A stretch of 64,000 bases of DNA from Moniliella sp. 'wahieum' (GCA_003971905.1 RSEE01000040.1:434001-498000), one strand, 5' to 3'; positions 7,735 to 62,304 are shown, counted from the first letter of the stretch. Notes: a model not told the origin generated them from the sequence alone. Numbers and translations: made by a program.

Positions 7735-9616
<1,882 letters not shown>

Positions 9617-10055
9617 GGCAGGCAGAGCGCAGGGGAAGGAGAGGGGGTAGGGGTGGTGGGGTTTGCTCGCTCGCCGGCCAACATGCGCCAGCGCTCCCCT
9701 GGACAGCGAGGCCGCCCGCCTGCTTTCGACTCCTGCCGCGTACGTAATCACGCCATGCTGATTCGCCCGCGGGAATTGAACGTTGCAAGGGAGGTTGTTC
9801 AATTGGTACACGGCTGCCCATGTGGTGCTGGGTCGACGCACGGAGGCTGCGAGGGTGGGCCAGGCATCATGCATCATGCATCGGTTGAGGAGGCGGATGT
9901 GCTGGGTCGGTGCAACGGCCACTGTCCGCGCCGAAGAGCGGCGTGCGATTCCGCCCTGGGGTGAGGCGGCGGAGCGGATGGGCGGCAGGCGGGATGGAAT
10001 CGGAGAGCAGCAACCCTCACACTCGATGATGCGCCGCCAGCCCAACCCTACCACC

Positions 10056-15268: not shown

Positions 15269-15818
15269 GGTGGCCGCAGAACTGCCCGCCGTGGTCGTGG
15301 TGGAGGTAGGGGGGGTGGCGTGCGCTGAAAATGGCATGTGACGGCCTCTGTTTCTGCCCCGGCCTGGCCAACCCCCCCCGCGTCAACCAACACCAGGCTG
15401 GCACTGCCCCTGTGGCACCCTCTGCTCACACTCGCATCCGAACGCGTAGCTCGCAAACTGGCGCGCTGTCTGGCGCGCCTGCACGGGGACAGTGTCAACG
15501 CAGACGACGCAAATGGCAAAATGGGGCTAGGGTTGCAGCCGTGATATAATTTCTCCAGATCCTAGGTTTTTATCGTATCCGATCTCAGAAGCCGAGGCTC
15601 CCGAGCCTCACTCAGGCCTCAGGCTCAGGCCTCAGGGCCTCAGGGTCCCGGCAACGGATCTATCGTGTGCGTAGTGTCCAGCCCTGTCCGGCCTCACAGC
15701 GAGGCGTCACCGTATCGCGTTCGACCCTATCTCCCAAGGAAAATCGTCAATCGATACAACTAATGAAGGAGCCCATCCTGAACTGCTCAGCGATGATAAA
15801 GTCCATCCACGGCGTCTA

Positions 15819-18991: not shown

Positions 18992-19474
18992 GTCTGCGAG
19001 AGAGAAATTACATTCATCCAACCTTGTCTTCCGTTTCGTTTGGCGCTCATGCATGATATGTCATCTTCTGTCTGCCTCCCCTTGTGATCCGTAGTAGTAC
19101 TGGTATGGCATACGATTGTTAAGTGTGTGCCCCCATAGCGAATCGAAGACGATTAGCAGGTGGCGTGGAAGTATAAGGCCGTGGGCGACGAAAGCGGGAA
19201 ATCGGTCAAGAGGCCGCAGGTCACGGTGACCGGTGACCCTCTCTGGCATAGCAACAACTCCCCGCCTTGGTTCGGTGCAACTTTCCCCGCTCCTTCCGCC
19301 CACGCGCACAGCTGCGAGTGGGGTTCCGCAGGCCATTTTTTTTGCGGGAGGCGGCACAGACGGCCGACACAAAGCGACTAGTGACTGCTGCGACCTGATT
19401 GGCTGCAACCCACAACTTGGCCGCCGTTCCCTTCCTGTTGCCACCACCTTGGACACCTACTATACCACCCCGCC

Positions 19475-21526
19475 ATGGCGACGTTCAAGAGCAACATTGC
19501 GCCTGTGCCCACGGCCAGCGACTTTCTGGACATTGTCCTGTCCAAGACACAGCGCCGAACCCCCACCGTTGTCCATCCCGGATGGAAGATCACCCGCATC
19601 CGCAGCTTTTACATGCGCAAGGTCATGTTCACCAAGGATTCATTTACTGAAAAGCTCGCGCTATTCTTGAGGAGTTCCCCATTCTGGATGTATGTGGTGC
19701 AGTCCGTTTTGATGGCGCTCCGGCTCTGACCTTTTCTTCCACTCTTCTTAGAACCTCCACCCGTTCACTGCGTCGCTCATGAACGTCCTGTACGATAAGA
19801 ACCACTACAAGCTCGCCCTCGGCCAGCTCAACACCGCTAAGCACCTCATTGAGCAGGTGGCAAAAGACTACACGCGCCTCCTTAAGTATGGCGATAGTCT
19901 ATACCGTTGCAAGCAGCTCAAGCGGGCCGCATGGGCCGCATGGCGACCGTCATGCGCCGTCAGAAGGACTCGCTTGCATACCTCGAGCAAGTTCGCCAAC
20001 ACATCTCCCGTCTGCCTTCAATTGACCCTTCCGCCCGTACACTACTTTTTGCGGCTACCCCAACGTGGGCAAGTCTAGCTTCATCAACAAGGTGACTCGG
20101 GCGGATGTAGATGTGCAACCGTATGCGTTTACGACCAAGAGTCTATTTGTTGGCCACATGGACTACAAGTACCTTCGCTGGCAGGTTATTGACACCCCAG
20201 GTATCTTGGACCATCCCCTCGAGGAGATGAACACGATTGAGATGCAGTCTATTACCGCGTTGGCCCATCTGCGCTCGGCTGTGCTGTACTTCATGGACTT
20301 GTCCGAACAGTGCGGCTACACGGTCGAGGCCCAGGTCCAGTGTTCAACTCGATCAAGCCCCTGTTTGGTGGAAAGCCCACCTTTGTGGTCGTCAACAAGG
20401 TGGATGTTCTCCGTCCGGCCGATCTGGACGAGCCGCGGGCCAAGCTGCTCCAGTCCATCGTTGATGAGGGCGCTGGCAAGGTCCACCTCATGGAGGCTCC
20501 ACTTTTACGGACGAGGGTATCATGGATGTGCGCAATGCAGCTTGTGACGCTCTGCTGCTTCGCTCCGTGTCGAGGCCAAATCCAAGTCGCACAAGGCGTC
20601 GCAAGACGATGTTCTGAACCGTCTGCACGTTGCCATGCCCAAGACACGCGACAACGTGGAGCGGAAGCCCTTTATTCCCGCCGGCGTCGTCGGTAAGGCC
20701 AAGTACGACAAGGACGATCCTAACCGGCGCAGGCTCGAACGGGACCTGGAGGCGGAGAACGGTGGTGCGGGCGTGTACTCGTCGGATCTGCGCAAGAACT
20801 ATATGCTGGAAAATGACGAGTGGAAGTACGATGTGATCCCCGAGATTGCCGATGGCAAGAACATTGCCGACTTTGTTGATCCCGACATTCTCGAGAAGCT
20901 CGAGGCACTTGAAAAGGAGGAGGAGAAGCTGGAGGCGGATGCTTCTATCACGAGTCGGACGAGGAGGTTGATGAAGAGGCTGATGAGATCCGTGCGACGC
21001 CAAAGAGATCCGGTACAGGCAGGCGGTGGCCAAGCAGGATGCCCAGCGGCGCAAGGCCAAACATACTGCTGTCAAGATCCCGCGCAAACTCCAGCAGCAC
21101 TCGATCAGCGAAATGGGTACCAAGCTCCGCGAATCAGGCATTGACCCTTCCAGCATCGAGGCCCGGGCCGCCGTCTTGGCCAAGGCCAAGGGGCTCGACA
21201 GCAAGCGGAAGCGCCGGGATGAGGATGAGGAGATGGGCGATGCAGAGGAGGCGATGGACACGGACGACGCCCCCCGCCGCAAGGCACGCAAGAGCAACGA
21301 GGGTCGGGGCGTTGCGACCAAGTCCAGCACCAAGCTGGGAACCCGCTCCACTGCCGGGCTCAAGGACGAGGCGCAGGCCAAAAAGGCTCTCAAGCTGCAC
21401 GACCTCTCCATCCGCCAGCGCAACTACCATGGGCATCAGGGCGAAGGAGACCGCGCCATCAAGGAAGCCCGACCTCAATGGCTTTACCGCGGCAAGATGT
21501 CTGCTGGCACCCGCCGCAGCCGGTAG
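19475..21526 (+). CDS. NOG1: Nucleolar GTP-binding protein 1 (pre-60S GTPase)
   Basis: [71 protein letters not shown]-terminal [21 protein letters not shown]. Intron at about 19689-19751. Confidence 0.97.
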
Positions 21527-21921: not shown

Positions 21922-22630
<709 letters not shown>

Positions 22631-22819: not shown

Positions 22820-23160
22820 GTGGATCATGCATCGTGGGTAAGCCTGTCACGCATGGTGCTGTGGATGATGCATGAGCGTCTGAGCGCCAAACCACAGCTG
22901 GTGGCCAGTCACATGACCGGTGAGGCCCTGAGGGCGTCGATGATTCAAGTGGGATCTCACCGCTACCGATCTTTGGTCACCGGTCACCCATTCACCTGCC
23001 CATCGAATCTAAACGTTCAACTTGCCCTGGAAGCTTGAAGGTTGAAAGATTGACGCTTGAATGCTTGAACGTTCAACACGTTCAACGTGGACAACATGTC
23101 ACGTGTCCAGTGGGCATCCCATTCAATCTCCAGGCCTCAGACGTGTGAATATTGAATTCA
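22820..23160. repeat. Palindromic 7-bp-period island in the divergent Ran/ILV3 intergenic region
   Basis: TCACC-GG-TCACC 22977-22988, TGAACGTTCA about 23066, TGAAT-AT-TGAAT 23146-23157, AAGCTTG/ATGCAT variants. Confidence 0.8.
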
Positions 23161-23400
23161 CGCGTCAGCCTGTCACACGTCCCGCGGCCGCACCCAAGCA
23201 GCGGACTGGTGCCTGTGGAAAACAGCTGATTCTTCGGATTTGTCAGCCTCCCCCGTCTCTTCTCCGCGGCCGTGTGTTTTCTCCGCCGCTTCTTCGCATG
23301 GACATAGCTGTTTCTGACCTTGCAAATTACACGTTGGCCGGCCGTCCCTACCGCCACCACCACCACCCCCGCTCCTTCCCCTTCGTCTCTCTGGGCCAGC

Positions 23401-25253
23401 ATGGGACTTCTCAGTGCGAGTAGGTCAGCCGCGCGTTCGCTCGAGTGGCTCCCGCGCGCCACGCCGCCGCCTTCTCGTCCTCCGCGCGTACCGCCAACCG
23501 CCCTCCGCCCGGAAACCTGAACAAATACTCACTCACATCACCGCCCCCAAAGATCAGGGCCGTCTCAGGCCATGCTCTACGCTACAGAGGGCATTGATTC
23601 GAAGCAGGACCTGTCCCGTGCCATGGTGGTGTGGCCAGCGTTTGGTATGTACACCATTCCTCCCTGTGTTCACAGAGCTAACCCTTAACCCAGGTACGAG
23701 GGCAACCCTGTAACCGGCATCTTCTGGGTTGGCCAGCGGGTCAAAAGTCTATCAATGAGGCCGGTCTGACGGGCTACCAGTTTGGCACCGTTGGTGTAAG
23801 TGATGGTATCTCGATGGGAACGTCGGCCATGTCGTACTCTTTGCCCTCGCGTGACCTGATTGCCGACTCGGTCGAGAGTGCCTGCGGCGGTCATGGCTCG
23901 ACGGCGCGGTTGTCATCCCTGGGTGTGACAAGAACATGCCCGGTGTGCTTATGGCGCTGGGCCGCTTAACCGCCCTGGTATCATGTTGTACGGAGGTACC
24001 ATCCGCCCTGGCCACTGCGGTGGCGAGACGCTGGACATTGTCTCGGCCTTCCAAGCCTACGGTTCTTACCTGGCTGACGGCCAAACGCTGAGGCAGAAAC
24101 CAAGCGGGCCAATGTTATCCGTAACTGCTGCCCTGGACCTGGTGCATGTGGCGGATGTACACTGCCAATACGATTGCATCGTGTGCAGAAGCGCTGGGCA
24201 TGTCTCTCCCGGGCTCCTCCAGCTTCCCCGCTGAGTACCCGAGAAGCTGGCCGAGTGCGACTCATGGGGCGGCAATGCGCAATCTTCTGGAGAAGGATAT
24301 CAAGCCGCGTGACATTATGGTTAAGAGCGCTTTTGAGGATGCGATTGCCCTGACTATGGCCCTGGGTGGCTCGACGAATGTGGTGCTTCACCTGATTGCC
24401 ATTGCTCGCACGGTGGGCGTCGAACTTTCTCTGGACGATTTCCAGCGCATTGCAGAGCAAACGCCCTTCTTGGCTGACATGAAACCTAGTGGCAAGTACG
24501 TTATGGAGGACTATGGCTCCAATGCGGTGGTATGCCGACCATCATTCAATACCTGATTGAGAACAAGTTCATGAAGGGTGAGCACATGACGGTCACTGGC
24601 CGCACTTTGGCCGAGAACGTGGACCGGTGGACGCATGAGCGCGGCAAGCTGCCCGAGTCTCAAAAATTGTTGCGCCAAAGGAGAACCCACTCAAGGCCAC
24701 GGGCCATCTGCGTATCCTCAAGGGCAACCTTGCCCCTGGTGGTGCCGTGGCTAAGATTACAGGCAAGGAAGGTCTGCATTTTACGGGCAAGGCACGTGTC
24801 TTTGACACGGAAGACGATCTGGTCCACGCTGTGGAACAGAACACGATCAAGAAGGGCGAGAGACGGTGGTGGTGTTGCGGTACAAGGGTCCCAAGGGCGG
24901 ACCAGGCATGCCCGAAATGCTCAAGCCCACCTCACTCATCATGGGGGCTGGACTCGGACAGGATGTGGCTTGTTTGACCGACGGCCGCTTCTCGGGCGGA
25001 TCGCATGGGTTTGTCATTGGTCATGTGGTGCCCGAGGCCCAGGTGGGTGGGCCAATAGCCCTGGTGCGCGATGGCGACACTATCAAGATTGATGCGGAGA
25101 AGAACACGCTTGACCTGGTGGATGTCGGAGGAAGAGCTGGCCAAACGCCGCCAGGAGTTTGTTGCGCCGCCGCTGAAGCCCACTCAAGGCACTTTGTTGA
25201 AGTACGCCCGCAACGTTGCGGACGCTAGCCATGGGTGTGTGACGGACCTTTAA
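23401..25253 (+). CDS. ILV3: Dihydroxy-acid dehydratase, mitochondrial
   Basis: [87 protein letters not shown]. Intron at about 23646-23692. Confidence 0.96.
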
Positions 25254-27889: not shown

Positions 27890-29400
27890 GGTGAGGTCAC
27901 CGGTGCCAACATGCACCAAGTGTGTAACATGTAACTGGAGGATTTACGAATGCAAATAGGTTCGATGATCGATGATCATCAATCCGTGCAACGTTCTGTT
28001 CAGGCCGATCGATCATTGATGGTCGATCATCAATGCATGCCGCTAAAAGTTCAAAGTTCCACGGGCTGAGGCGCTGAGGCACTAAGGCACTAAGTACTAA
28101 GGCCCAAGATGCGAAGATCCCAAGAGGCCTCGGGCCTCGTACGAAGTGCCGAACTCAGCCTCAGCGCCAAGCAGGCCGAGCTACTAAGCGCTATGCAGGC
28201 AGACCTGCGCTCTACGGTCGAAGGATACATTAATTGGCCGCCATGCTCTCGACGGGCCAACAGGGATGGAAGTTGGAAACGCTAATGAGGCCTTAAGCTG
28301 GCCCAATGCGCTCTTGCCCCGCGCCGATCAGAGCCGTCAGTCTGAGATGAGTGTTGTGAGATGAGTGATGCTAGTGATGTAGCGATGATCTTGTTGGCTG
28401 CTCGCTCGCAGCTGTGCTATTTTCGTGACCGAGGGTCGAGTACACAATTATCAGTCACTAGTCACATGTCACATAGGAACTAGTCAGTCTGTTCCCAACT
28501 GCAATAAGAACAAGTAACAGTCGGGGCTTAGGCTAAGCGCTATAAGCGAGGGAGACCACATGTTGTGCCACCGGGTGGCTCGTGCTTTGGCCAACGTCCC
28601 TTACGTTCCTCCTCAGGCCTAGGAGCTCCGTTGCCTTCTCTCTCTCCTGTTTTCCCTTTTGTTCCGCAGCTTGGCTCCTGGTGGCGACTCGCTACTTGAC
28701 GTTCCTCTGTAGGCGTTGCGGGTTGGCTTTTAGTCTACCACCACCAGTGCGATTGCATCACCCTCGAGGACCATCCGGACTCCAAAGGTCTAATCACACC
28801 GTGGTCCAGTCGTCACACACGGGGGATTGGAAAGATCGTTCGCAGAAGGAAACAAGATATGGAAGACGAGAGGGAAAGAGAGAGAGGGACATATGATTGT
28901 TCTATTCCAAAAGAGAGATCTCAACAGAGGAAGATACAAAGGGAAAAGTATTGGAGAACATGGTCTGGTCACAAATGCTGGCAAGCCGGCGTTCGTTGCA
29001 ATGACGACACAAGAGGCATCAGCAGGGAACAGAGCCATGGGGAAAGGGTAGAGCGAGAGATTTGCATCATTGCCACCAGCAACAGCCGAGCCGCCCTGGG
29101 CCGCTCCGCAGCAATCCACAGCCCGCCCACAGGCCCCCGCCACAGGCAGCCCACCGCATGCCTGTGGCGAATTATAGTTGGCCGCCGATCATTCAGGTCT
29201 TAACGCTTAAACTCGAAATACTGAACGCACCAACTCAGTAGCACAGCGCTGTAGTGCGTCTAGTACTCTCAAAGCTCAGTACGATCTCAGTTGGCAGTAC
29301 TGAACGTACTGAGCTTGCTGGTACTGAACGCGTGAACGTGAACGTTGTACGTTGAACGTTGAACGTTGAACGTTGAACACGTTGAACAGAGTACGTAAAA
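27890..29400. repeat. Two palindromic 7-bp-period island clusters (about 27890-28550 and about 29200-29400)
   Basis: TGATC-GA-TGATC 27966-27977, TAAGT-AC-TAAG 28091-28101, TCACT-AG-TCACA-TG-TCACA 28455-28473, (TGAACGT)3TGAAC 29353-29378. Confidence 0.85.
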
Positions 29401-34289: not shown

Positions 34290-35420
34290 AGTACCTAGTA
34301 CTGAGTGATATCGAGCATGAGTACCGAGTACTGAGTAACTGAGTACGTTGTTAGTCAGACTTGTCCTCAGGCCTCGGCTAAGGCGCTGAGGCCTCCTTCT
34401 CCTATGAAGGACCCCAAGGTTGCTGGAAAAGTCTTACACCAATTAAGGCCTCAGACAGAGGGACTGGCCAGCCGAGTGCTCCAGCAGCCCGCGCCGTTCC
34501 TCGCCCCACCGAGATCCAGAGCTGGTGCATGGGGGACGTGCGCTGCGACGATGCAAGGTGGAGGGCCGGCCGCAGACCTCAGACGCAGCGCCTCAGTACT
34601 CAGTCCCCCTGGTTTCCCACACGAGATCATGGATCCGAGATCACATGCATCTCACATCGCGGATCGGTCAGATCGCAGAGGGTCTCCCGTCTTCATCCAT
34701 CCCATCATCCACCCCACGCATCACCCATCCCACCCCATCCCACCCCATCCCACCCACATCTCCGCTGCCGCAACGCCTCAGCCACCATCGTCACGCGTCA
34801 CGCCCACGCCCTCAGGCTTCGGGTCTGAGGCCACAGGAACGCAACTCCTCAGGGCGGGCTGTGCGCAGGCCCCGCTGCCGCCGCCAGACTGCCGCATGTG
34901 TGTTGCATCACATTCACGTCTTCACAGCTCAGACGCTCCGACACTCGACGCTCCGACGCTCCGACGCTCAGCGCTCAGACTGAGCCCCTGTTGGCAACCC
35001 CTAGCGTCCCCTAAGGCCCATTATGCATTATGCATTACCGGTTACCGGTTACCGGCCTTACCACCACCCCTACCCTGAGGCCCCTGAGGCCAGTCCCCGT
35101 CTCTACAGTGGTTTTTTCATGCTACTTGTAGAAACGTCGTCTACCGGTCACCGGTCACCGAACTCTCCATCATGCATCGTGCATCATCGATCATCGACCA
35201 TTTATCATGCATCATGGATCATCGATCATTTCGATCGATCCAATTATTGGCGATGTGCCCGGTGATCCTATGCAATAGTCATTAGTCACAAGTCACTAGT
35301 AGGCACCAGCCAAGCTTGAAGCTTGAGCTTGAAACTTGAAGCTCCAACTTGATGTTCAAGCTTGAGAATCTGAGGTCTGAGAGCATGCGTACTCAGGTAC
35401 TCAACTTGAGTAAGTCGCCT
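34290..35420. repeat. Large palindromic micro-repeat island
   Basis: AGTACTG run 34305-34347, (CGACGCTC)-like 8-mer run about 34930-34980, TTATGCA x2 + TTACCGG x3 at 35021-35055, TCACC-GG-TCACC about 35148, ATCGAT/ATGCAT run 35169-35242, AAGCTTG run 35311-35365. Confidence 0.85.
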
Positions 35421-37099
35421 GCCGGCAGTCGAGTGAGTCCCTTGAGTGGCTGGCGGTGTGAGTCGGTGGTCGGTGGATGTGATGGTGGTTGGTGGCCGGT
35501 GGCCGGTGGAAGCCTCCCAGACAAGGGTATTAGGGTGATTGATGCCGTTTTCTCTTCAGAAGGTTGGGTGGCCTTGTGTGGTTCGTTGCACTTACCGCGT
35601 CTCATCGACATCGATCATTTGCCAAAAGCACTATAAAAATCTTGATGCATTAATGATGTCCGAAGCAAAGCTTCACCAAAAAGGTTTCGGAAGTAGCAGT
35701 GGAACAGCGTGGCACATCCTCTCCTGCACTTTCGGTGGTCTAGACGGTGGGCTGTGGAAACGGTGGGCCATGGGCGGCTTGAAATTAATGAAAGCAGAAA
35801 CCTTAATTGTTTCGCCAACCCGTTCTTGCAAGCAGCTATCCCACTGTCAAAAGGCTATCCCCCGCCATTCCCTGCCACTGCCCCCCCCCCCCTCAGCCTC
35901 AGGGTCTCACCTCTTCCCTGCGTTCCTGCCCTATACGCTCTGCTGCCCTTTTTTTTTTTTAGCTCCGTCGACCATCCCTCTAACTTGTCCTTTCACTTTC
36001 AGACCCCGCCCTTCTCTTCCACCTCTTCTCCGTTCTGGTAATCATCGCCTGACACTGAAAATGGCAACCAATTCAAGCCTGCTTTGATACGCTGTTACAT
36101 GGTGTTACATGGCACCCGAAGAGGGGAGATCAAAAAAACATCCATGTGCTAGTTAGTGTACGGCGCAACAGGCTGTTGTGAGGGGGACTGCCCTAGTTGG
36201 ACGTTTGTTTTTATGTAATCCCCCCTATCCACATGTTCGACACCCAAAAGCCGACAGCAAAGGTCACCGGCGACGGAACTCTATCCTATGTATGCACATT
36301 TGCATCCTTCTCGTGTGGTGCGAGGCCCGCCGGCCCACATGCACCATCACTATTATGATCACTTGGGAAATCAGTAACGAGATAGTTAGTATATAGTCTG
36401 GAGACGGATTCAATGCGTCTTGCATCAGTATAGGGCGTGGGGTGAGCGTATGTGACGTTTTATATATGCCACATCTTCATAATAGATGGAAAAAGGAAGG
36501 GACCACGAGTTGTTTCTCGTTTACTTTCGTTCGCCTTGCTAGCTCCCGCCCTTCCACTCTGATATCTATACTACTTTTTCTACTCGCCGCGTCTTCTTCA
36601 CCTTAAAAAATGCCCGTTTCTCCCATGAGTGCCCATTGTGAGGTTCACGCCGCTCACCCTACCCTATGAGTGCTTCTGTGGGTCTGCGGCCGCGTTTTTA
36701 CCCAGAGACTAGGAGGGGGGAGGTGCACCGTCTATATGGAGAAAACAGAACAGGCCCGATCTTCAATACTTACTATCTGCCGCCTCATATCCACTTCCAA
36801 TCCCCAAGGTAATGATCAATGAAGTGAGTAGCATTGAGCGGCTGAAAAATCTCTAAGGAAGCACAAAGGCTATGGTGCCCTCTTCAGTGAGGGCCGCATT
36901 ATAATAGGCCAGATGTATAGATGGGGTTGCACGTTCCGAGTCCGTTGCGTGAGTACCAGAGAAGAGGCCCGTGAACTTCAAGATGCGGGAGAAAGATGAA
37001 AGAAACAGGGATGCCACAAATAACAAACTTTACCCTCCTCCTGCGGAGGGCACAGGTACATGTACAAAGAAATGAAGGTGAGGTACCTCCCATGATCAG

Positions 37100-39137: not shown

Positions 39138-39700
39138 CTGCATCCAGCCTGCATCCAGCCTGCATCCACCCTGCATCCACCCTGCATCCTGCCGGGACTG
39201 GGGACTCGGACGCAGTGCTGATGCGCTGCCAGGCGCGGCACTGGCGCTGCCTGCTCGGCCTGCTCCGCCCCCCCGGCCGGCCAGGCACCTCCAGGCACCT
39301 CCAGGCACCACCTGGCACCAGCCACCTCAGGCAGCCGCATGCATCATGTTAGCAAGGCGCCACTGTGCACCGCGGCTGTCCAGGGTCCGTCCGCGCCCAC
39401 TGTGGGGCAGTGCCGGCGGTGCTGCGCACGTTTGCCGGCAATGGTAAATCATGTCCCAGATACGGCGCAGTTTGTGTGTGCATGTGAATATTGAATGCAC
39501 GAATGAGTGACCGCTGATTTGATCCAGGCTCCCGTCCCCTGGTCACGGCGAGGGGGCGGGCGTACCAGGGCATACCCTGGCATACCTGCCGTACCGGTTC
39601 GCAGCAAAGCTATATACTTGGTTCAGTGTTCAACTGGAGACCTGTACTATGTGCGAGGCGGCCCCGTTCCGCCTCTGTTCCGCCCCTGTTCCGCTCCTTC
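39138..39700. repeat. Cluster of short minisatellites
   Basis: (CTGCATCCASC)-like 11-mer x5 at 39138-39192; CCAGGCACCT 10-mer about x3-4 at 39281-39330; (CTGTTCCGCCC)-like 11-mer x3 at about 39665-39700. Confidence 0.8.
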
Positions 39701-39839: not shown

Positions 39840-42110
39840 ACTAACAGTGACCGTATCGTGGTGGACTTGGACGAAATCGACTTTGTTGCCTTGATTGCCA
39901 CGTTCAGAATCGACGTTGGGGCAGGTCTATCCGGGTGGACCCAGCCCCTCCTACTAACGGCCCTTGAATGCAAGCGCTTCGTCGCCTTTCTCACCGCCCT
40001 CACCAAGAGTATTTACCACGGCACCGCCCCAGGACGCGAGCTCCTGTTGGCCTCCCGCCTCACCCCCCTGGAGAAGGCATCGGGAGGCATCCGCCCCATC
40101 GCCTGTGGGGAGCTGATCTACCGCCTGTGCGCCAAGGCCATCGCTCGAGCGATCGCCCCAACAGCTGGCTTCTCCCCACCCAGTTGGGAGTAGCATCGCA
40201 AAACGGGGTGGAGCCTATCGTACGGATGGTCGAGCGCATGACAGCGCCAGGCGGGGAGAACGATGCGGAACTGGGCGACTTCAGCCACGTCGCCATGCTC
40301 GACTTTACCAACGCCTTCAACACTGTGCGCCGTCGCACACTCGCCAAGGCGCTCCATGCCTACGCCCCCCATCTCCTCACGTTGGGCCGATGGATCTATG
40401 GTTCCCCCACCCAGCTCTGGGTCGCGTCGGGCGGAAATGAGACCAACGTCCTGTCGGCAGAGGGCGTACGGCAGGGCGACCCCCTCGCCCCCTTTTTCTT
40501 CTCCATCGCAGTGCGGCCCACGCTGGAGAAACTGGAACAGGACCTGCCGCCGGGGCACCTGGTGATGGCATACCTGGACGACATTACGATCTTCGGTCCA
40601 GGGCCAGGCATTACCGGCCTAGCCGCGGAGATTTTGGAAGACGACGCGTCAGGCCTCAAGCTCAACCTGCGCAAGTGTGTCGAGCGGGACCGGGACCAGA
40701 TTCGGGTGGATGGTCTGCAGGTTCTGGGCACTTGTGTGGGAGGGGTAGACTGTCGTCGATCGTGGCTCCGGGCCCAACTGGCCAGTCTGAGGGAGAACAT
40801 GCCTAAGTTTGATGGCATCACCCGCCAGGGACGCCTCTTACTATGGCGGCTCAGCACTCAGACCAAGCTGCGCCACCTGCTCCGCACCATGCAGATGGAA
40901 GGAGAGCTAGACGACGTGCTGGCCGAGATTGATGCCTTCATCTGTACGGAGTTCAGACGGATCCGGGGCGACGAGGATCCCCAAGGTGCCAAGGACGACC
41001 ACTTCGACATGCTCATGAGCCTGCCTCTTCGGCTGGGAGGATGTGGCAGCCCGCTTTACTCGTATATTGCGCCCCACGCCCGTGCCGCGGCCAACGAGGT
41101 CAACGACTATCTTATTACCACTTATGTTGACCGTTCGGGACCGCAAACGGCAAGGGCCAACGCATTTACGAAGCAACGCCAGCGCTGCCGCGAGATGTGG
41201 GAGCAAAGTCGACAGGAGCTGCTCCAGAAGCTGGACGCTGCCGATGGTCGTCATGTGGTTGAGCACAGCAACCCGCTGAGCCACAACTGGCTCTCCGCTA
41301 TTCCATCCGTCCCGTACCTCAAGCTCTCTGACCAGCAGGTCCAGGTTGGTCTCCAGCTCCGCACGCTGTGCCGCACCACGCGCAGCATGTGCAAGTGCGG
41401 CGTCATGTCCTCGCTGGAACACATCATGTCCTGCACCCGCACCCAGGCCAAGTTTGGTGCGTTGCATGAGGCAGTGCGGGAGCCCATTCTCCAGCTCCTC
41501 CGCTCCATCCCCGACCCACGTCCACAACGAACCTATGGTGGAGGAAGAGGATGGGACGAGGCGCGGACGGAAGGCACAGCGCACCGATTACCGCGTGATG
41601 GGGCCCGGAGCACTGGGAGGAACCGGAATGGAGGTAGACCACACGCTGCGCGACACGGGATCGCAGGAGGCGCAGAGCGCGTACCGGCGGGTGGTGCATG
41701 AGAGCACTGCGTCGCCTTTGGAACGCCGGGAGAAGGAACTGCTTCGGCTGCTTGAACAAGCAGAATGCGACAAGAACGCCAAGTACCAGGGACGCACTCA
41801 AGAACCGTTTTTCCCCTGGTTTTGACGACGCGAGGATACTACGGCACCAAGACGGCGGGCAAGTTGTTTGCGCATTGGAAGGAGTTGGCTACTAAGTCTC
41901 AGTGGAAATGGTTCCTCGCTCGTATGTCAACCACGTTCCTCCGTGTCCACACGCGCTTCCTAGGGTACGGGACCGGATGGCGTGAGCCGGAGGGTCCTGA
42001 TATCCTGGCGATCCCCCTGGTCCCTTAATCTTGGTGGCGCTTCCAAGTAACCCCCGCAAGATGAACGGTTCGGTTTAGACGTAGCGTTCCCCCTGTCCCA
42101 GCCTTAAGCT
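39840..42110 (+). mobile_element. Non-LTR retrotransposon, CRE/Cnl1-like, with RT, zinc knuckle and restriction-like endonuclease; 5'-truncated
   Basis: RT motifs LEKASGGIRPIACGE, QLGV, LDFTNAFN, GVRQGDPLAP, AYLDD, GLKLNLRKC, VLG. Then LPLRLGGCG, CCHC (CKC..EHIMSC) and RLE signatures (HEAVRE, QRTD, EVD, KNAKY, FFPLVLTTRG). Stop at 42028. Three frameshifts. Both ends approximate. Confidence 0.9.
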
Positions 42111-42119
42111 CTGTCAATG

Positions 42120-43575
42120 ATATGAATTCAGAGAAGAGTCTGATTTTTGGAAAGATCGTACATCTTGCCCAGAGGCTTATGCGACCCTCGGATCAAGATT
42201 GACGCCAAAAACATTCCCCCTATACTGTCACATAGGGAACCTCTCTTTTCCCGATGCGGTCAGCATCGCCTCGGTGCCCGACCCGGCCAAAGCCAAGGAC
42301 CAGACACAAGCAGCGTCCCGGGAGCGTTCGCTCTCATACATGGGCCTGGAGCCCAACACACCCGTAGAGCAGGTCAACAAGATTGACAAGGTCTTTATTG
42401 GGTCCTGCTCCAACTCGCGCATTAAAGATCTGCGCCGTGCGGCCCAGGTGCTCCACGGCCGTCACGTGGCTGAGAGGGCGTACGCCATGCGGGTGCCCGG
42501 CTCCGGCTTCATCAAGAAGCAAGCGGAGACTGAGGATTTGGACAAGAGGTTGAAGGAGGCTGATGAAGTTGACTGATGATGTGAGGCACAGGCTGCTCCT
42601 AGGAGGTGCTTGGGCCTGAATATTGAATTCAGACCAGCTGGCCGCTGGCGGCGAGGGGTGCGCCTCTACGTCCAACTGCAGCTTTGAATCCCGTCAGGGC
42701 CCAGAAGGACGCACTCCTCTTGTATCGCCTGCCATGGTCGCTGCTGGCGCTCTGACGGGGCGTTTGACGGATGTACGGACTCTTCCTGCTGGCAAAAGGC
42801 GGCGGCACATGCCCAAGTGGAGACTGCGAATGCCGCGCAACTAAAGCGTTCCTCTCCCCATCTCAGGCCCCACCTGCGCTGCAAGCCAAGGACCCACAAC
42901 CTCCCGTTGACGTACTCGCCCACCAAACAGATGAGAACCGTTTGGAGGATGTGCCGGCCAGGGAGTAGGCGACGGTATGGACAGCGGTGGCCTACAACAG
43001 TTTACCACCTTCTCAGGTATTGCCGTGCCAATGGGGCGGGTGAATGTGGATACGGATTTGATCCCTTTGCAGCCAAGCTCCTCCAAGTGATTCCTCGCTT
43101 AGGCTGGGGTGTCACAGCCTGTTGAACACGTTGGGGACAACAAGGATGATACAGGGCCACTCAATCCGGACTTTGTTTTGAACCAAGAGCCCTGGTCGCA
43201 CGCCAAGTTTGGGGTAACAGGGCCCAATTGGGGTTGCGGCTCGTCGCGCGAGCATGTCACTTGGTCTTGGCTCGATTTGGGCATCCGTGCTGTCATTGCG
43301 CCCTCGATTGCCGACATCCACGCTACCAATCTGGCAAGGAATGGCATTTTGGGGGTGGTGCTGCAAGCAGAGGTGGACCAGGTCATGGCGAGCACCAAGG
43401 CGGATACGACGGTGACGGTGGACTTGGAAATGCAAATTAAGCGGTTGTGCTGGAGGATGGATCGCGCTTCTCGTTCTCCATCTCTTGAGTTTACCATACA
43501 AGTATTGTCTTCCCAATGGTCTGGACGACAGTAGTCTCACGCTCCGATATGAGGCGAGCATTGCCGCCTTTGAGC
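42120..43575 (+). pseudogene. LEU1: 3-isopropylmalate dehydratase relic lacking its N-terminal part
   Basis: [48 protein letters not shown] (vs STSNRNFEGRQG), [42 protein letters not shown]. Trp>stop changes, small insertions and a wrecked GCSMCLGMN Fe-S motif. Confidence 0.88.
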
Positions 43576-43790
43576 GAAAACGTTCGAGCGGGAGGCCATG
43601 GTACGACAGGTTGGGCTACAAGGGACCTGGTTAGGCCATTTCCGTGGGCGTGAGTAAGTCTGCCAAGGTGAATGACTGGTAGTCGACCACAATTTTATGT
43701 TTACAGATACCCCGTGCCAGCACCACAACACATCATGTTTGGTTTCCAGAAGCCATAGCAACTAGCAAAGATGCATATACACTAGTCGCG

Positions 43791-54292: not shown

Positions 54293-54470
54293 CCAATCCA
54301 TTCCAATCCAATCCAGTACAGTGCAATGCAATGCAGTGCAATCCAATCCAATCCAATCCAATCCAATCCAATCCAATCCAATCCAATCCAATCCAATCCA
54401 ATCCAATCCAATCCAATCCAATCCAATCCAATCCAGTACAGTGCAATGCAGTGCAATCAAGTAAAGTCAA
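54293..54470. repeat. Compound pentanucleotide microsatellite (ATCCA)n
   Basis: About 19 perfect ATCCA units at 54341-54435, flanked on both sides by in-phase GTACA-GTGCA-ATGCA variants. Confidence 0.97.
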
Positions 54471-59968: not shown

Positions 59969-60779
59969 CTATCGTTTTCACGAATCCACAGTCTTGCACC
60001 CATATTCACTAATAGCCATCATATTCGTGCTCGCTCCGTTTTTGATGGGCTTCTGTTAGTGAAGGTTCATGAGGATTGAAGGCACCAAGGATCCCATTCT
60101 CCAGGATCTCGACAGCACAAGTGGTCATGCCTGGTTCTCAGTGGCCCTCTTGGATCCAATGTGGGAAGAATAAGATTCAACGTTCAACGCTGGATAGAAT
60201 CGCCATCGAACCGCCCGGTCCCGATCAGCATTACCAGGCGAGAAGTTATACGAGACGCGCAACTCTATACTAACCAGTTCCGGTGCCCGCGACATACGGC
60301 CGACGATCAAGCCATCATACATCACACACATCATGCATCACACATCACATGTCACATCACACCAAATGGTGTCACATGTCACATGCCACCACACTCCAAC
60401 AGCAGTGCTGACTCCTTCCAACCTGGACATGCTTCGAGTTGCAGAACACGTGCATTTGACCATTCCATTCAAGACGTTTTGTCCTACACGGTTGGTCTGG
60501 TGAACTAGGGGCGCCCGCACCACCAAATAAGTAAAGAAGAGATATTGATGAAAACACACAAAATGTGGCTAATACACTGAAGTGTGTGTGTCTACCGATC
60601 CCACACTGTAGCAGACGGTTCGCATAGAAGAAAAGGGTGGCCGCCTCGCAAAAACTGGGAGGGAAGAGAAGCTGGAGCCCTGTATCCAAAATCCCTCCAG
60701 TACGCAGACAGAGTTGAAGACGGAGTACGAGCAATTCACTCTTTGTGGCCGCCAGAAAACAAAGGAAGGTTGAAGCGAA

Positions 60780-62304
60780 ACGCTTAGGTCTGTTGGTCTT
60801 GTTGACGTGGGGGCCGAAACCAATGTTGGCGAAGGTGCCAGCCTGGTTACCCAGACGCTGAAGCGATCCGATGATGTCAAAGCCCAGGATGCCGTCCAAG
60901 GCCAGGGTTCCGGCGTTCAAGAGAGACGGAGTGGGCTCGCCACATGGGAGGGGGCTGAGGGTGTGGCCGTTGAGGCTGAACACCTCCAAAACGAAACGCA
61001 TCGCATTGAGGTCACCACCAATAACAAGTTGAGGAGCTGTGGGCGTTGGCAGTGTAAACGTTGAACTGAATGTTAGCACCGTTTGGCACTGTTGCTTCAC
61101 GTACTCGTTAACAGCGTCAAAGCTGATCACATCATCGGCCGATCCGTGGTAGATCATGCGAGGGAACTTGGGGTAGCCAACACCAACCGAAGACTTGTTA
61201 TTCCAGAGCGTCTCACGGTCCAGGACGGTGCGGAACGGCTCCCAGTCGTAGACACTGCCACCACCGGCACCTGGATCATGTTGAGGTAGGACTTGCCGGA
61301 GTACTGAGGACCACGGAGGTGGAGTGGCAAGTAGGGGGTTGGTAATGGTCGACAAGTCTGCACGAATCGATCCACCGCCGTACTGCTCAATGGCTTCCTT
61401 GAACGACTTGTAAGCAACGATCATACCGTGGATACCGCCAATGGTGAAACCAGAGAAAGAGGAGCCGTCAAAGTGCTTCAGGGTAAGCTCCATGTCAATG
61501 GGGGGCCACCGTGGGTGACACCAACAATGTTGAGCTCGGGAGCGTAGCTGGGAGCCAAGTTAGCCGCCCATGCAGTGACGTGAGCGCCCTCGAATAACCC
61601 GTCATGGCAACCTGGGCGTCGGGGGCCCAGTTAAGTGCCTTGCGGACAGCGCGCGCAGAGTCGAGAATGATGTAACCCGCAGTGAAACCAGAGAACAGCG
61701 CCGACTTGGGTCCCTCATAATCCGGAACCACCACGCTGATGCCGTTGCTCAGCAAAAAGTCAAACCATATGGGCACATCGTCACCTGTGTGTTGCGCAAT
61801 CAGTCAGTCGTAGTCCATGGGTCGACCATAGTTGTCGATCACAACTAACGTACCGACAACCATAACGTTGGGGGCAGTGGGGCCCTTCAAACAGTGTAGG
61901 AGGGCGCGCAGTCGCGTTGAGTCGAGTCCTCCCACAAGTGGTAGGAAAGCATCTTTTGCTTGCCTCCAGTAGCGGGTTGAATCACAGTGGTGACAGACGA
62001 GGAGGGGTGACCAGCCGAGTTGGTGGTGCGGAAATGGATCTGGTAAGATTGCCCACATCGACAAGACCAGTCATGGCAGGCTTGATTTCGCGCATCTCAA
62101 TGATGTCACCAGGCTTGTAGTGGCTCAAGTTGTGAGGAGCCCGGTAGAAAGGATCCTGGAGAGGAGGAGGGAAGTCCCGAGCGAACACCTGGTGCCGGTT
62201 AGCCCGAGACAACCCACGACGGTTCGAGGCGGCGTCGACACCGTTGGTGAGAGCCGCCAAGATCGTGGCCACCCCCACAACGGAGAGGAGAAGGTAAACT
62301 TCAT
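60780..62304 (-). CDS. Secretory lipase (LIP family, alpha/beta hydrolase)
   Basis: Signal-peptide-like N-terminus, PPLQDPFY, LSYHLWEDS..DCAPSY, VVVPDYEGP, LDSARA, nucleophile region GYS(G)GAH..WAA..APSYAPELNIVG, PKFPRMIYHGSADDVI. 3' end uncertain. Confidence 0.88.

Follow-up and report, generated by a model that had tools for sequence, protein, structure and literature searches.

A 64,000-nucleotide stretch of the Moniliella sp. 'wahieum' genome (GCA_003971905.1, RSEE01000040.1:434001-498000; the window) carries at 42124-43679, on its plus strand, a pseudogene of LEU1, the gene for 3-isopropylmalate dehydratase, in which one inserted tract belongs to a class of 7-bp repeats whose arrays cluster intergenically. 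The relic was recognized by Pfam, tblastn and frameshift-aware alignments. Three of the four pieces tested were positive in Pfam (Aconitase, E=3e-22 and 2e-9; Aconitase_C, E=2e-20), and the aconitase-family large domain and the swivel (small) domain are both present, in the fused fungal order. When ten Leu1 proteins were used in tblastn, the relic was found to span only amino acids ~260-784, in three frames; residues 1-259, the N-terminal third of the protein, are absent, the relic thus being 5'-truncated. The closest intact Leu1 found is that of Tilletia walkeri (70% identity over 65% of a 151-amino-acid piece of the relic), and frameshift-aware protein-to-DNA alignment to five references gave 48-52% identical codons. 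Directly upstream, at 39968-41701 (+), lies a 577-amino-acid reverse-transcriptase open reading frame (ORF) of a non-LTR (long terminal repeat) retrotransposon (RVT_1, E=1.4e-13).

In-frame stops of the relic are found at 42233, 42574, 42577 and 43632, at least ten frame-changing insertions are consistent across the five references, and the Fe-S motif is interrupted twice. Its length changes are nearly all insertions: +2 at 42181, 42222, 42248, 42589 and 43064, +3 at 42376, 42565, 42574 and 42647, plus one of +4 and one of +7. Five of these (+3, +3, +2, +4 and +7) are packed into ~70 bp, 42560-42630, at the most conserved Leu1 motif; the 310 bp before this cluster were noted as free of insertions. 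Upstream of the +4 lesion, TGA has become TGATGA at 42561-66 and again at 42574-79 (+3 each, plus strand), and CA has been inserted at 42589-90 (+2, plus strand). The 7-mer CTGATGA is present twice in this part of the relic, 13 bp apart (42560 and 42573). The change from TGA to TGATGA was considered as a general +3 scar and rejected, the count in the window (33 vs 27.5) not being enriched.

The two remaining lesions interrupt GCSMCLGMNPD, of which GCSMCLGMN is kept in 30 of the 31 fused Leu1 proteins retrieved (at least 650 amino acids long). The relic reads here ggc tgc tcc (taggagg) tgc ttg ggc ctg aat (attgaat) tca gac cag ctg, with ggc at 42591-93, tcc at 42597-99 and the series tgc ttg ggc ctg aat ending at 42621. 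TAGGAGG (42600-42606, +), 7 nt in place of one Met codon, is the +4 lesion and creates the palindrome CTCCTAGGAG. ATTGAAT (42622-42628, +) is the +7 lesion, so that 10 nt, and not a single Pro codon, separate the Asn codon from that for Asp. The frameshift-aware alignment called the +4 change against all five references and the +7 change against four of the five. Both had been described in an earlier note on this DNA, and its coordinates and letters for the two were all correct. The LEU1 codons set the net gain at the second site at +7 and make it clear that the "AT" filler was absent beforehand.

The inferred original target of the +7 lesion is the 7-mer CCTGAAT (42615-42621, +), which consists of the last base of a Gly codon plus CTG AAT and has the form nnTNAnn, with TGA as its core. 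The inserted ATTGAAT is a perfect odd palindrome (by which we mean a 6-bp palindrome plus one base): the preceding AT is reverse-complemented, and TGAAT is then repeated. The resulting period-7 run, 42617-42628, is of class (3,7). Its 12-mer, TGAATATTGAAT, recurs at 23146-57 and 39485-96, making three copies against 0.10 expected, a number reached in none of 100 shuffles; the +7 gain and the shared 12-mer had both been pointed out in the earlier note. TGAATNNTGAAT likewise occurs three times, against 0.03 expected. At both intergenic sites, TGTGAAT is followed by ATTGAAT, once at 23144-23157 (+), 250 bp upstream of ILV3, and once at 39483-39496 (+), upstream of the reverse-transcriptase ORF. 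A search for wider homology among the three 12-mer loci found none.

Across the window, direct 5-mer repeats are most over-represented at a period of 7 (368 vs 75.9±7.1), the period of 33 of the 120 rows returned by Tandem Repeats Finder (TRF), with many different units and arrays of up to ~8 copies. Period-7 runs of at least 12 bp number 170, compared to 55.9±6.2 in 30 shuffles, and 61 of them have a 7-bp odd-palindromic unit in some rotation (6.3±2.4 in shuffles); no comparable excess was observed at periods 4-6 or 8-12. The centre triplet of these 61 units is TCA or TGA in 42 cases and TAA or TTA in nine, so that 84% conform to nnTNAnn, whereas among 1057 odd-palindromic 7-mers present in single copy the TNA centre has a share of 22%. 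Enrichment is found for units with a 6-bp palindrome (61/170, 36%, against a background of 10.5%) but not for those with only a 4-bp palindrome (32/170, 19%, against 24%), and a bare rule of "two palindromic bases" is therefore insufficient; a 2-nt palindromic filler lacking target specificity was rejected on these figures.

The inferred original targets show the TNA core plus complementary ±2 pairs in 17 of 35, and no target motif extending past TNA was detected. Deleting 7 nt yields perfect 10-bp palindromes at 42617 and 23146 (CTGAATTCAG and GTGAATTCAC). A palindromic context was rejected as a prerequisite, being present at two of 30 sites. At distance 7, 91 recurrences of TNA-anchored 5-mers were counted, 63 of them with a P-type spacer, against ~4 in shuffles. 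These 5-mers also recur at distances 6, 8 and 9 (21, 32 and 24 cases, against ~4 each), although 1-nt assembly deletions could mimic some of these; such minor size classes resemble the heterogeneity of end-joining footprints.

The repeats have a common anatomy, which can be written xyTNA + y'x' + xyTNA: the original 7-mer adjoins a copy in which the two bases nearest the junction have been replaced by the reverse complement of those on its other side. Odd-palindromic runs are 12 bp long in 21 cases, 13 bp in 17 and at least 14 bp in 21, and 19 of the 21 runs of length 12 lie inside two in-phase units, as a perfect palindrome plus 5 nt of its neighbour. Polarity was then scored in every pair of neighbouring in-phase TNA heptamers with 5 nt in common in which one member, and not both, is a perfect palindrome. 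A palindrome made from the left half stands to the left of the hybrid 19 times and one made from the right half stands to its right 16 times, while the opposite arrangements occur six times and once, giving 35 on the predicted side against 7 on the wrong one (binomial p=1.5e-5). The two strand outcomes are about equal (19 vs 16), and 14 in-phase pairs consist of identical palindromic units. The LEU1 site conforms, the hybrid CCTGAAT being followed by the right-palindromised copy ATTGAAT.

Four loci hold triples in which an original unit stands between a left-palindromised and a right-palindromised one. The fullest, at 35019-35053 (+), reads CATTATG CATTATG, then CATTACC, then GGTTACC GGTTACC; others are AGTCACT, AGTCACA, TGTCACA at 28453-28473 (+) and CATCATG, then CATCACA CATCACA, then TGTCACA at 60329-60356 (+). 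The densest mosaic of heptamer arrays in the TRF output occupies 34300-35510. The earlier note had described the event as a 5-bp duplication plus two palindromic bases, which yields the same product but hides both the 7-bp two-fold symmetry and the TNA specificity; the unit is more aptly described as a 7-bp duplication with T-N-A at its centre and with palindromised junction bases.

Some further arrays were recorded. In the heptamer array at 15610-15637, ACTCAGG CCTCAGG recurs with its units displaced by -1, which reflects either a variant scar of +6 or the loss of 1 nt from the array in assembly. Period-8 arrays lie next to heptamer arrays, with three copies of CCTCAGCG and three of its reverse complement GCTGAGGC (2217-2241 and 28065-28088); these two regions form a 40-nt inverted match at 83%, 25.8 kb apart. 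A secretory-lipase gene of the LIP family (60375-61803, -), in at least two frames, has heptamer arrays just upstream and in its 3' end (60176-60389).

The 51 runs of TNA type are unevenly distributed. None falls in ~7 kb of verified coding DNA (Poisson p=0.004), and the top quartile of the period-3 coding signal holds only two (p=7e-5). They are concentrated at 1-2000 (12 runs), 34-36 kb (11), 28-30 kb (6) and 60-62 kb (4), with none at 44-56 kb, and this strong clustering is compatible with local hopping. Depleted as it is in coding DNA, the heptamer pattern has the behaviour of a mutation product, not that of an ancient regulatory motif. This is what the earlier note had proposed, and its view that the pattern arises by insertion in unconstrained DNA agrees with the net +7 against the LEU1 codons and with the size of the class (61 vs 6.3). 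The LEU1 heptamer lesion is thus a genuine member of the class and good evidence that the class is mutational, an inference made possible because the pseudogene copy is the only place where the state before the event is known. However, the relic does not calibrate the process, as had been suggested: it offers one such lesion among ~13-15 length changes in one pseudogene, from which no rate is obtainable.

The palindrome of the +4 lesion gave a different result. CTCCTAGGAG is present at 42596-42605, as previously noted, and is the only copy in the window. Even palindromes of at least 10 bp number 71, against 71.4±9.4 in 30 shuffles, and so show no excess; counted by arm length they number 255 vs 270 (at least 4), 71 vs 71 (at least 5) and 20 vs 17 (at least 6), and the relic itself contains three of at least 10 bp where ~1.7 are expected. 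Since generic palindromes are at chance level, we treat CTCCTAGGAG as coincidental, as it probably is, and no structure was found that ties the +4 lesion to the heptamer class. The palindrome is real, but pure fold-backs, which the earlier note had named among the structures to look for, are not supported.

To account for the +7 lesion, we favour, with confidence evenly divided for and against, the excision scar of a cut-and-paste, hAT-like transposon with a 7-bp target-site duplication (TSD); the transposon, the hairpin chemistry and the nick offset are what we infer. An element would have inserted at CC-TGA-AT in an already dispensable LEU1 copy, duplicating 7 bp. Upon excision, a hairpin would close each flank, as happens with hAT, Mutator-like and Transib elements and in V(D)J recombination, and a host nuclease would nick the hairpin ~2 nt 3' of its tip, so that 2 nt pass between strands. 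Artemis-type nucleases prefer this position, 2 nt 3' of the tip. Ligation of the top strand would give t1..t7 + t7't6' + t3..t7 and that of the bottom strand t1..t5 + t2't1' + t1..t7. More generally, a nick k nt 3' of each tip would carry k nt from one strand to the other. Whatever the value of k, the joint would always measure 14 nt (+7), and k of its bases, at the junction, would be reverse-complemented from one flank; for k=2, this makes a repeat run of 12 bp, and the two strands would give two mirror products. With T at position 3 and A at position 5 of the preferred target, the rewritten copy would be a perfect odd palindrome. Arrays could then grow by repeated hits on the perfected target, with or without slippage.

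One prediction of this model is that a duplication of TSD length should be retained, and the net gain is indeed +7 relative to the inferred ancestral codons, with 7 as the dominant distance. Another is that the bases at the joint should be P-nucleotides from either flank, as observed in LEU1, where AT follows ...AAT, and in 63 of the 91 distance-7 pairs.

Several observations weigh against an excision footprint. The window yielded no inverted-repeat element flanked by a TSD of 7 bp or of TNA type; a search for inverted repeats with 3-, 5-, 7- or 8-bp duplications returned five weak, chance-like matches, none of them with 7 bp, and a relaxed search for TNA-specific elements returned none, against one in the reversed-sequence control. 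No transposase domain (Pfam) was detected in 243 of the 279 ORFs of at least 100 amino acids in the window, the other 36 being ORFs that overlap VMA1, dynamin, an M24 peptidase, ILV3, the reverse-transcriptase ORF and the relic. The canonical hAT target, nTnnnnAn, is unlike nnTNAnn. At least 35-50 scars in 64 kb, mostly with one offset, are denser and more uniform than published sets of footprints; an Ac/Ds study, for instance, found 28 different footprints among 128 events (PMC5873905). Arrays of up to ~8 units need repeated hits or added slippage, and the +2, +3 and +4 lesions of the relic do not fit the model. The two intergenic copies of the 12-mer (23144-23162 and 39483-39501) match at 18 of 19 positions, TGTGAATATTGAAT-n-CACG, and the agreement of 23146 with 39485 is not readily explained by two independent scars. 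Finally, the product alone cannot tell a 7-bp TSD with a rewritten junction from a 5-bp duplication plus two P-nucleotides at some other staggered break. Paralogous segments by which insertions might be dated were also sought, and the window holds no usable repeats. The absence of an element from the window, the density of the scars, the 18/19 match and the non-diagnostic product are the reasons why our confidence in a transposon footprint is no more than evenly divided, and why a transposon-independent origin is kept as a possible, if doubtful, alternative.

In that alternative, which corresponds to the reading of the earlier note, a break or stalled fork at TNA is repaired by a short fold-back or template switch, either through polymerase snap-back (as in theta-mediated end joining) or through an endogenous or domesticated hairpin-forming nuclease, leaving 5 nt of direct repeat and 2 nt of reverse complement. 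The product is identical to that of a transposon footprint, no element is required where none is seen in the window, and the density and regularity of the scars are very high; moreover, the five insertions in 70 bp and the insertion bias of the relic suggest an insertion-prone repair regime. However, a polymerase folding back on T-N-A would need a 1-nt loop, and the strict +7 and the two-fold symmetric 7-bp site are left unexplained. Fold-back products are at chance (71 vs 71.4, with units carrying only a 4-bp palindrome at 19% vs 24%), and a palindromic context before the event is present at only two of 30 sites. A template switch should leave the inserted tract inverted and generic palindromes enriched, whereas only two of the seven inserted nucleotides are inverted. 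A hairpin and P-nucleotide footprint is thus more economical than a polymerase fold-back, and is the most economical account that we have. A host-encoded or domesticated activity might instead cut T-N-A with a 7-bp stagger, reseal the ends via hairpins and repeatedly add +7 palindromic units, a proposal that we consider unlikely.

Replication slippage, or a microhomology-mediated 7-bp tandem duplication, followed by point mutation is a rather improbable origin for the scars, even though slippage probably helps arrays to grow. Perfect multi-copy arrays do exist, with 14 identical in-phase pairs and up to ~8 copies, and a general origin of tandem repeats from microhomology-mediated duplication is put forward in a 2026 preprint (10.64898/2026.02.28.708716). 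Yet an exact 7-bp duplication gives runs of at least 14 bp, while runs of 12 bp (21) and 13 bp (17) together outnumber those of at least 14 bp (21), and the decay of perfect duplicates predicts four equally frequent hybrid arrangements, where 35 and 7 were counted. Neither the TNA specificity nor the palindromic units are explained. At LEU1, the new copy is not identical to its template, two junction bases being different, and an exact duplication would need two to three further substitutions precisely at the junction.

It is very improbable that the heptamers are cis-regulatory sites for dimeric transcription factors, with the relic copy a chance or exapted one. The arrays do cluster intergenically, probably in promoter regions, the two intergenic copies match at 18/19, and an odd-palindromic run would arise by chance anywhere in the 1.56 kb with p ~0.14. 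Nevertheless, dozens of different 6-bp palindromes are represented (AACGTT, ATGCAT, ACCGGT, AGGCCT, AATATT and others), so that no single factor fits; the relic copy is an exact, frame-breaking gain of 7 nt in an otherwise conserved motif, and the polar anatomy of hybrid and palindrome has no regulatory rationale. An assembly or sequencing artefact is almost certainly not the cause, for although the assembly is error-prone, with 11 frameshifts in V-ATPase A and 13-17 in ILV3, those errors are all deletions of 1-2 nt with no insertions, one 12-mer occurs at three loci, and random errors would not have given the class its internal logic.

The quality of the assembly was gauged on these two genes. 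The essential V-ATPase A gene (VMA1, 7740-9617, -) has 526 of 600 codons identical to Tilletiaria, and its alignment shows, besides the frameshifts, a single in-frame stop, which lies within its intron. ILV3, encoding dihydroxy-acid dehydratase (23407-25250, +), is full length, with a probable intron at ~23649-23699; compared to its closest relative (P0241), 471 of 512 codons are identical (92%) with no in-frame stop, and the one stop seen against three other references lies within the intron. Many of the deletions in both genes can be placed in short homopolymers, and this looks like deletion-type consensus error in the assembly. Errors of this type could not give rise to a +7, although they make the smaller lesions of the relic harder to interpret. 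ILV3 was considered as a second calibrating pseudogene and rejected, as it is full length and 92% identical and its deletions are of the same kind as those of V-ATPase A. ILV3 is otherwise intact and therefore not a second relic, and a loss of the leucine pathway is not established. The LEU1 relic may instead be a truncated extra copy, since the state of ILV3 suggests that the branched-chain pathway has probably been kept.

The relic contains no 1-nt deletion in ~920 well-aligned bp (p=9e-4 at the rate of the genes), and none was found in the 577-amino-acid reverse-transcriptase ORF; the density of errors is therefore uneven. One possibility is that the block formed by the relic and the reverse transcriptase is multi-copy and better covered, for example as a LEU1 fragment travelling with the retroelement.

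The window is GC-rich, and the best relatives of a fragment of its V-ATPase A are Ustilaginomycotina (Tilletiaria anomala 69%, Tilletia 64%, Malassezia ~63%). Parts of the NOG1 GTPase gene (19385-21141, +) fall in three reading frames, and a Ras-family GTPase gene (21999-22552, -) is divided between two ORFs; these splits are consistent with introns and/or with frameshift errors like those of VMA1 and ILV3. A CCAAT pentanucleotide microsatellite of ~29 copies, flanked by CAGTG/CAATG variants, occupies 54293-54435.

If the scars are indeed excision footprints, the intergenic heptamer repeats would be a readable record of single break-and-repair events, each of which keeps its original target and reveals which flank was copied. 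Past transposon traffic could then be counted genome-wide, together with its target preference and the offset at which the host opens hairpins, and one mobile-element family could build a sizeable share of promoter-region sequence. This would also be a warning against taking such repeats for regulatory motifs. Should a host-encoded activity at T-N-A be responsible instead, an endogenous, targeted insertion process would manufacture non-coding DNA, whole intergenic regions being made from such units, and would be accompanied by an insertion-biased decay of pseudogenes.

Literature listings and abstract openings yielded no description of palindromic heptamer arrays in any fungal genome, and the scars were compared to known systems. 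Tc1/mariner elements leave a 7-bp odd-palindromic footprint with an ambiguous central base (TAC(A/T)GTA in Sleeping Beauty); its palindrome comes from the element ends and the fixed TA, the net gain is +5, and the sequence is constant. The scar arms in the window, unlike these, come from the host flank and vary. Template-switch or quasi-palindrome mutations (the Ripley model; Loytynoja and Goldman) give rise to short inverted repeats, or make imperfect ones perfect, in a single event, as even palindromes or hairpins of any size and at any sequence. The heptamer scars, in contrast, have only two inverted bases, a constant gain of 7 and a TNA target, and the window shows no enrichment of generic palindromes.

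Among transposons with a TSD of this length, Galileo duplicates a 7-bp target whose consensus, GTANTAC, is an odd palindrome, and palindromic targets are general among transposons (PMC4168063). Galileo and the P superfamily of Drosophila thus likewise have a 7-bp odd-palindromic target, but the motif differs from nnTNAnn. P-type excision is not known to use flank hairpins. In basidiomycetes, hAT7 (Pucciniales) and Kyakuja (Agaricomycotina) are cut-and-paste elements with 7-bp TSDs, and hAT7 groups with hATs of the Ac/Tam3 type (PMC12730594). Both are reported there from other subphyla, and nothing connects them to this genome.

In product, the scars resemble the footprints of hairpin-forming systems, namely Ac/Ds, Tam3, MULE, Transib and V(D)J coding joints. 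The hAT, Transib, RAG and MULE systems form flank hairpins, possibly opened by an Artemis-like enzyme (PMC5499845), and Ac/Ds footprints are described in PMC5873905 as deletions and palindromic P-nucleotides that arise via flank hairpins, with Pso2 implicated. In the accounts given in these two sources, as in the window, both target copies are kept, the bases at the joint are reverse-complemented from the flank (P-nucleotides), and a scar lying inside a gene breaks the frame. One product is dominant in both, and the minor size classes of the window may correspond to the variants of known footprints. In contrast, hAT footprints contain an 8-bp duplication, where the window has 7 bp, an nnTNAnn target and a very uniform offset, and the scars of the window are tens of times denser than reported sets of footprints and stacked in arrays, with no element seen. 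They are best described as 7-bp duplications whose junction bases derive from hairpins: scars of this kind are known, but their form and abundance here are unusual.

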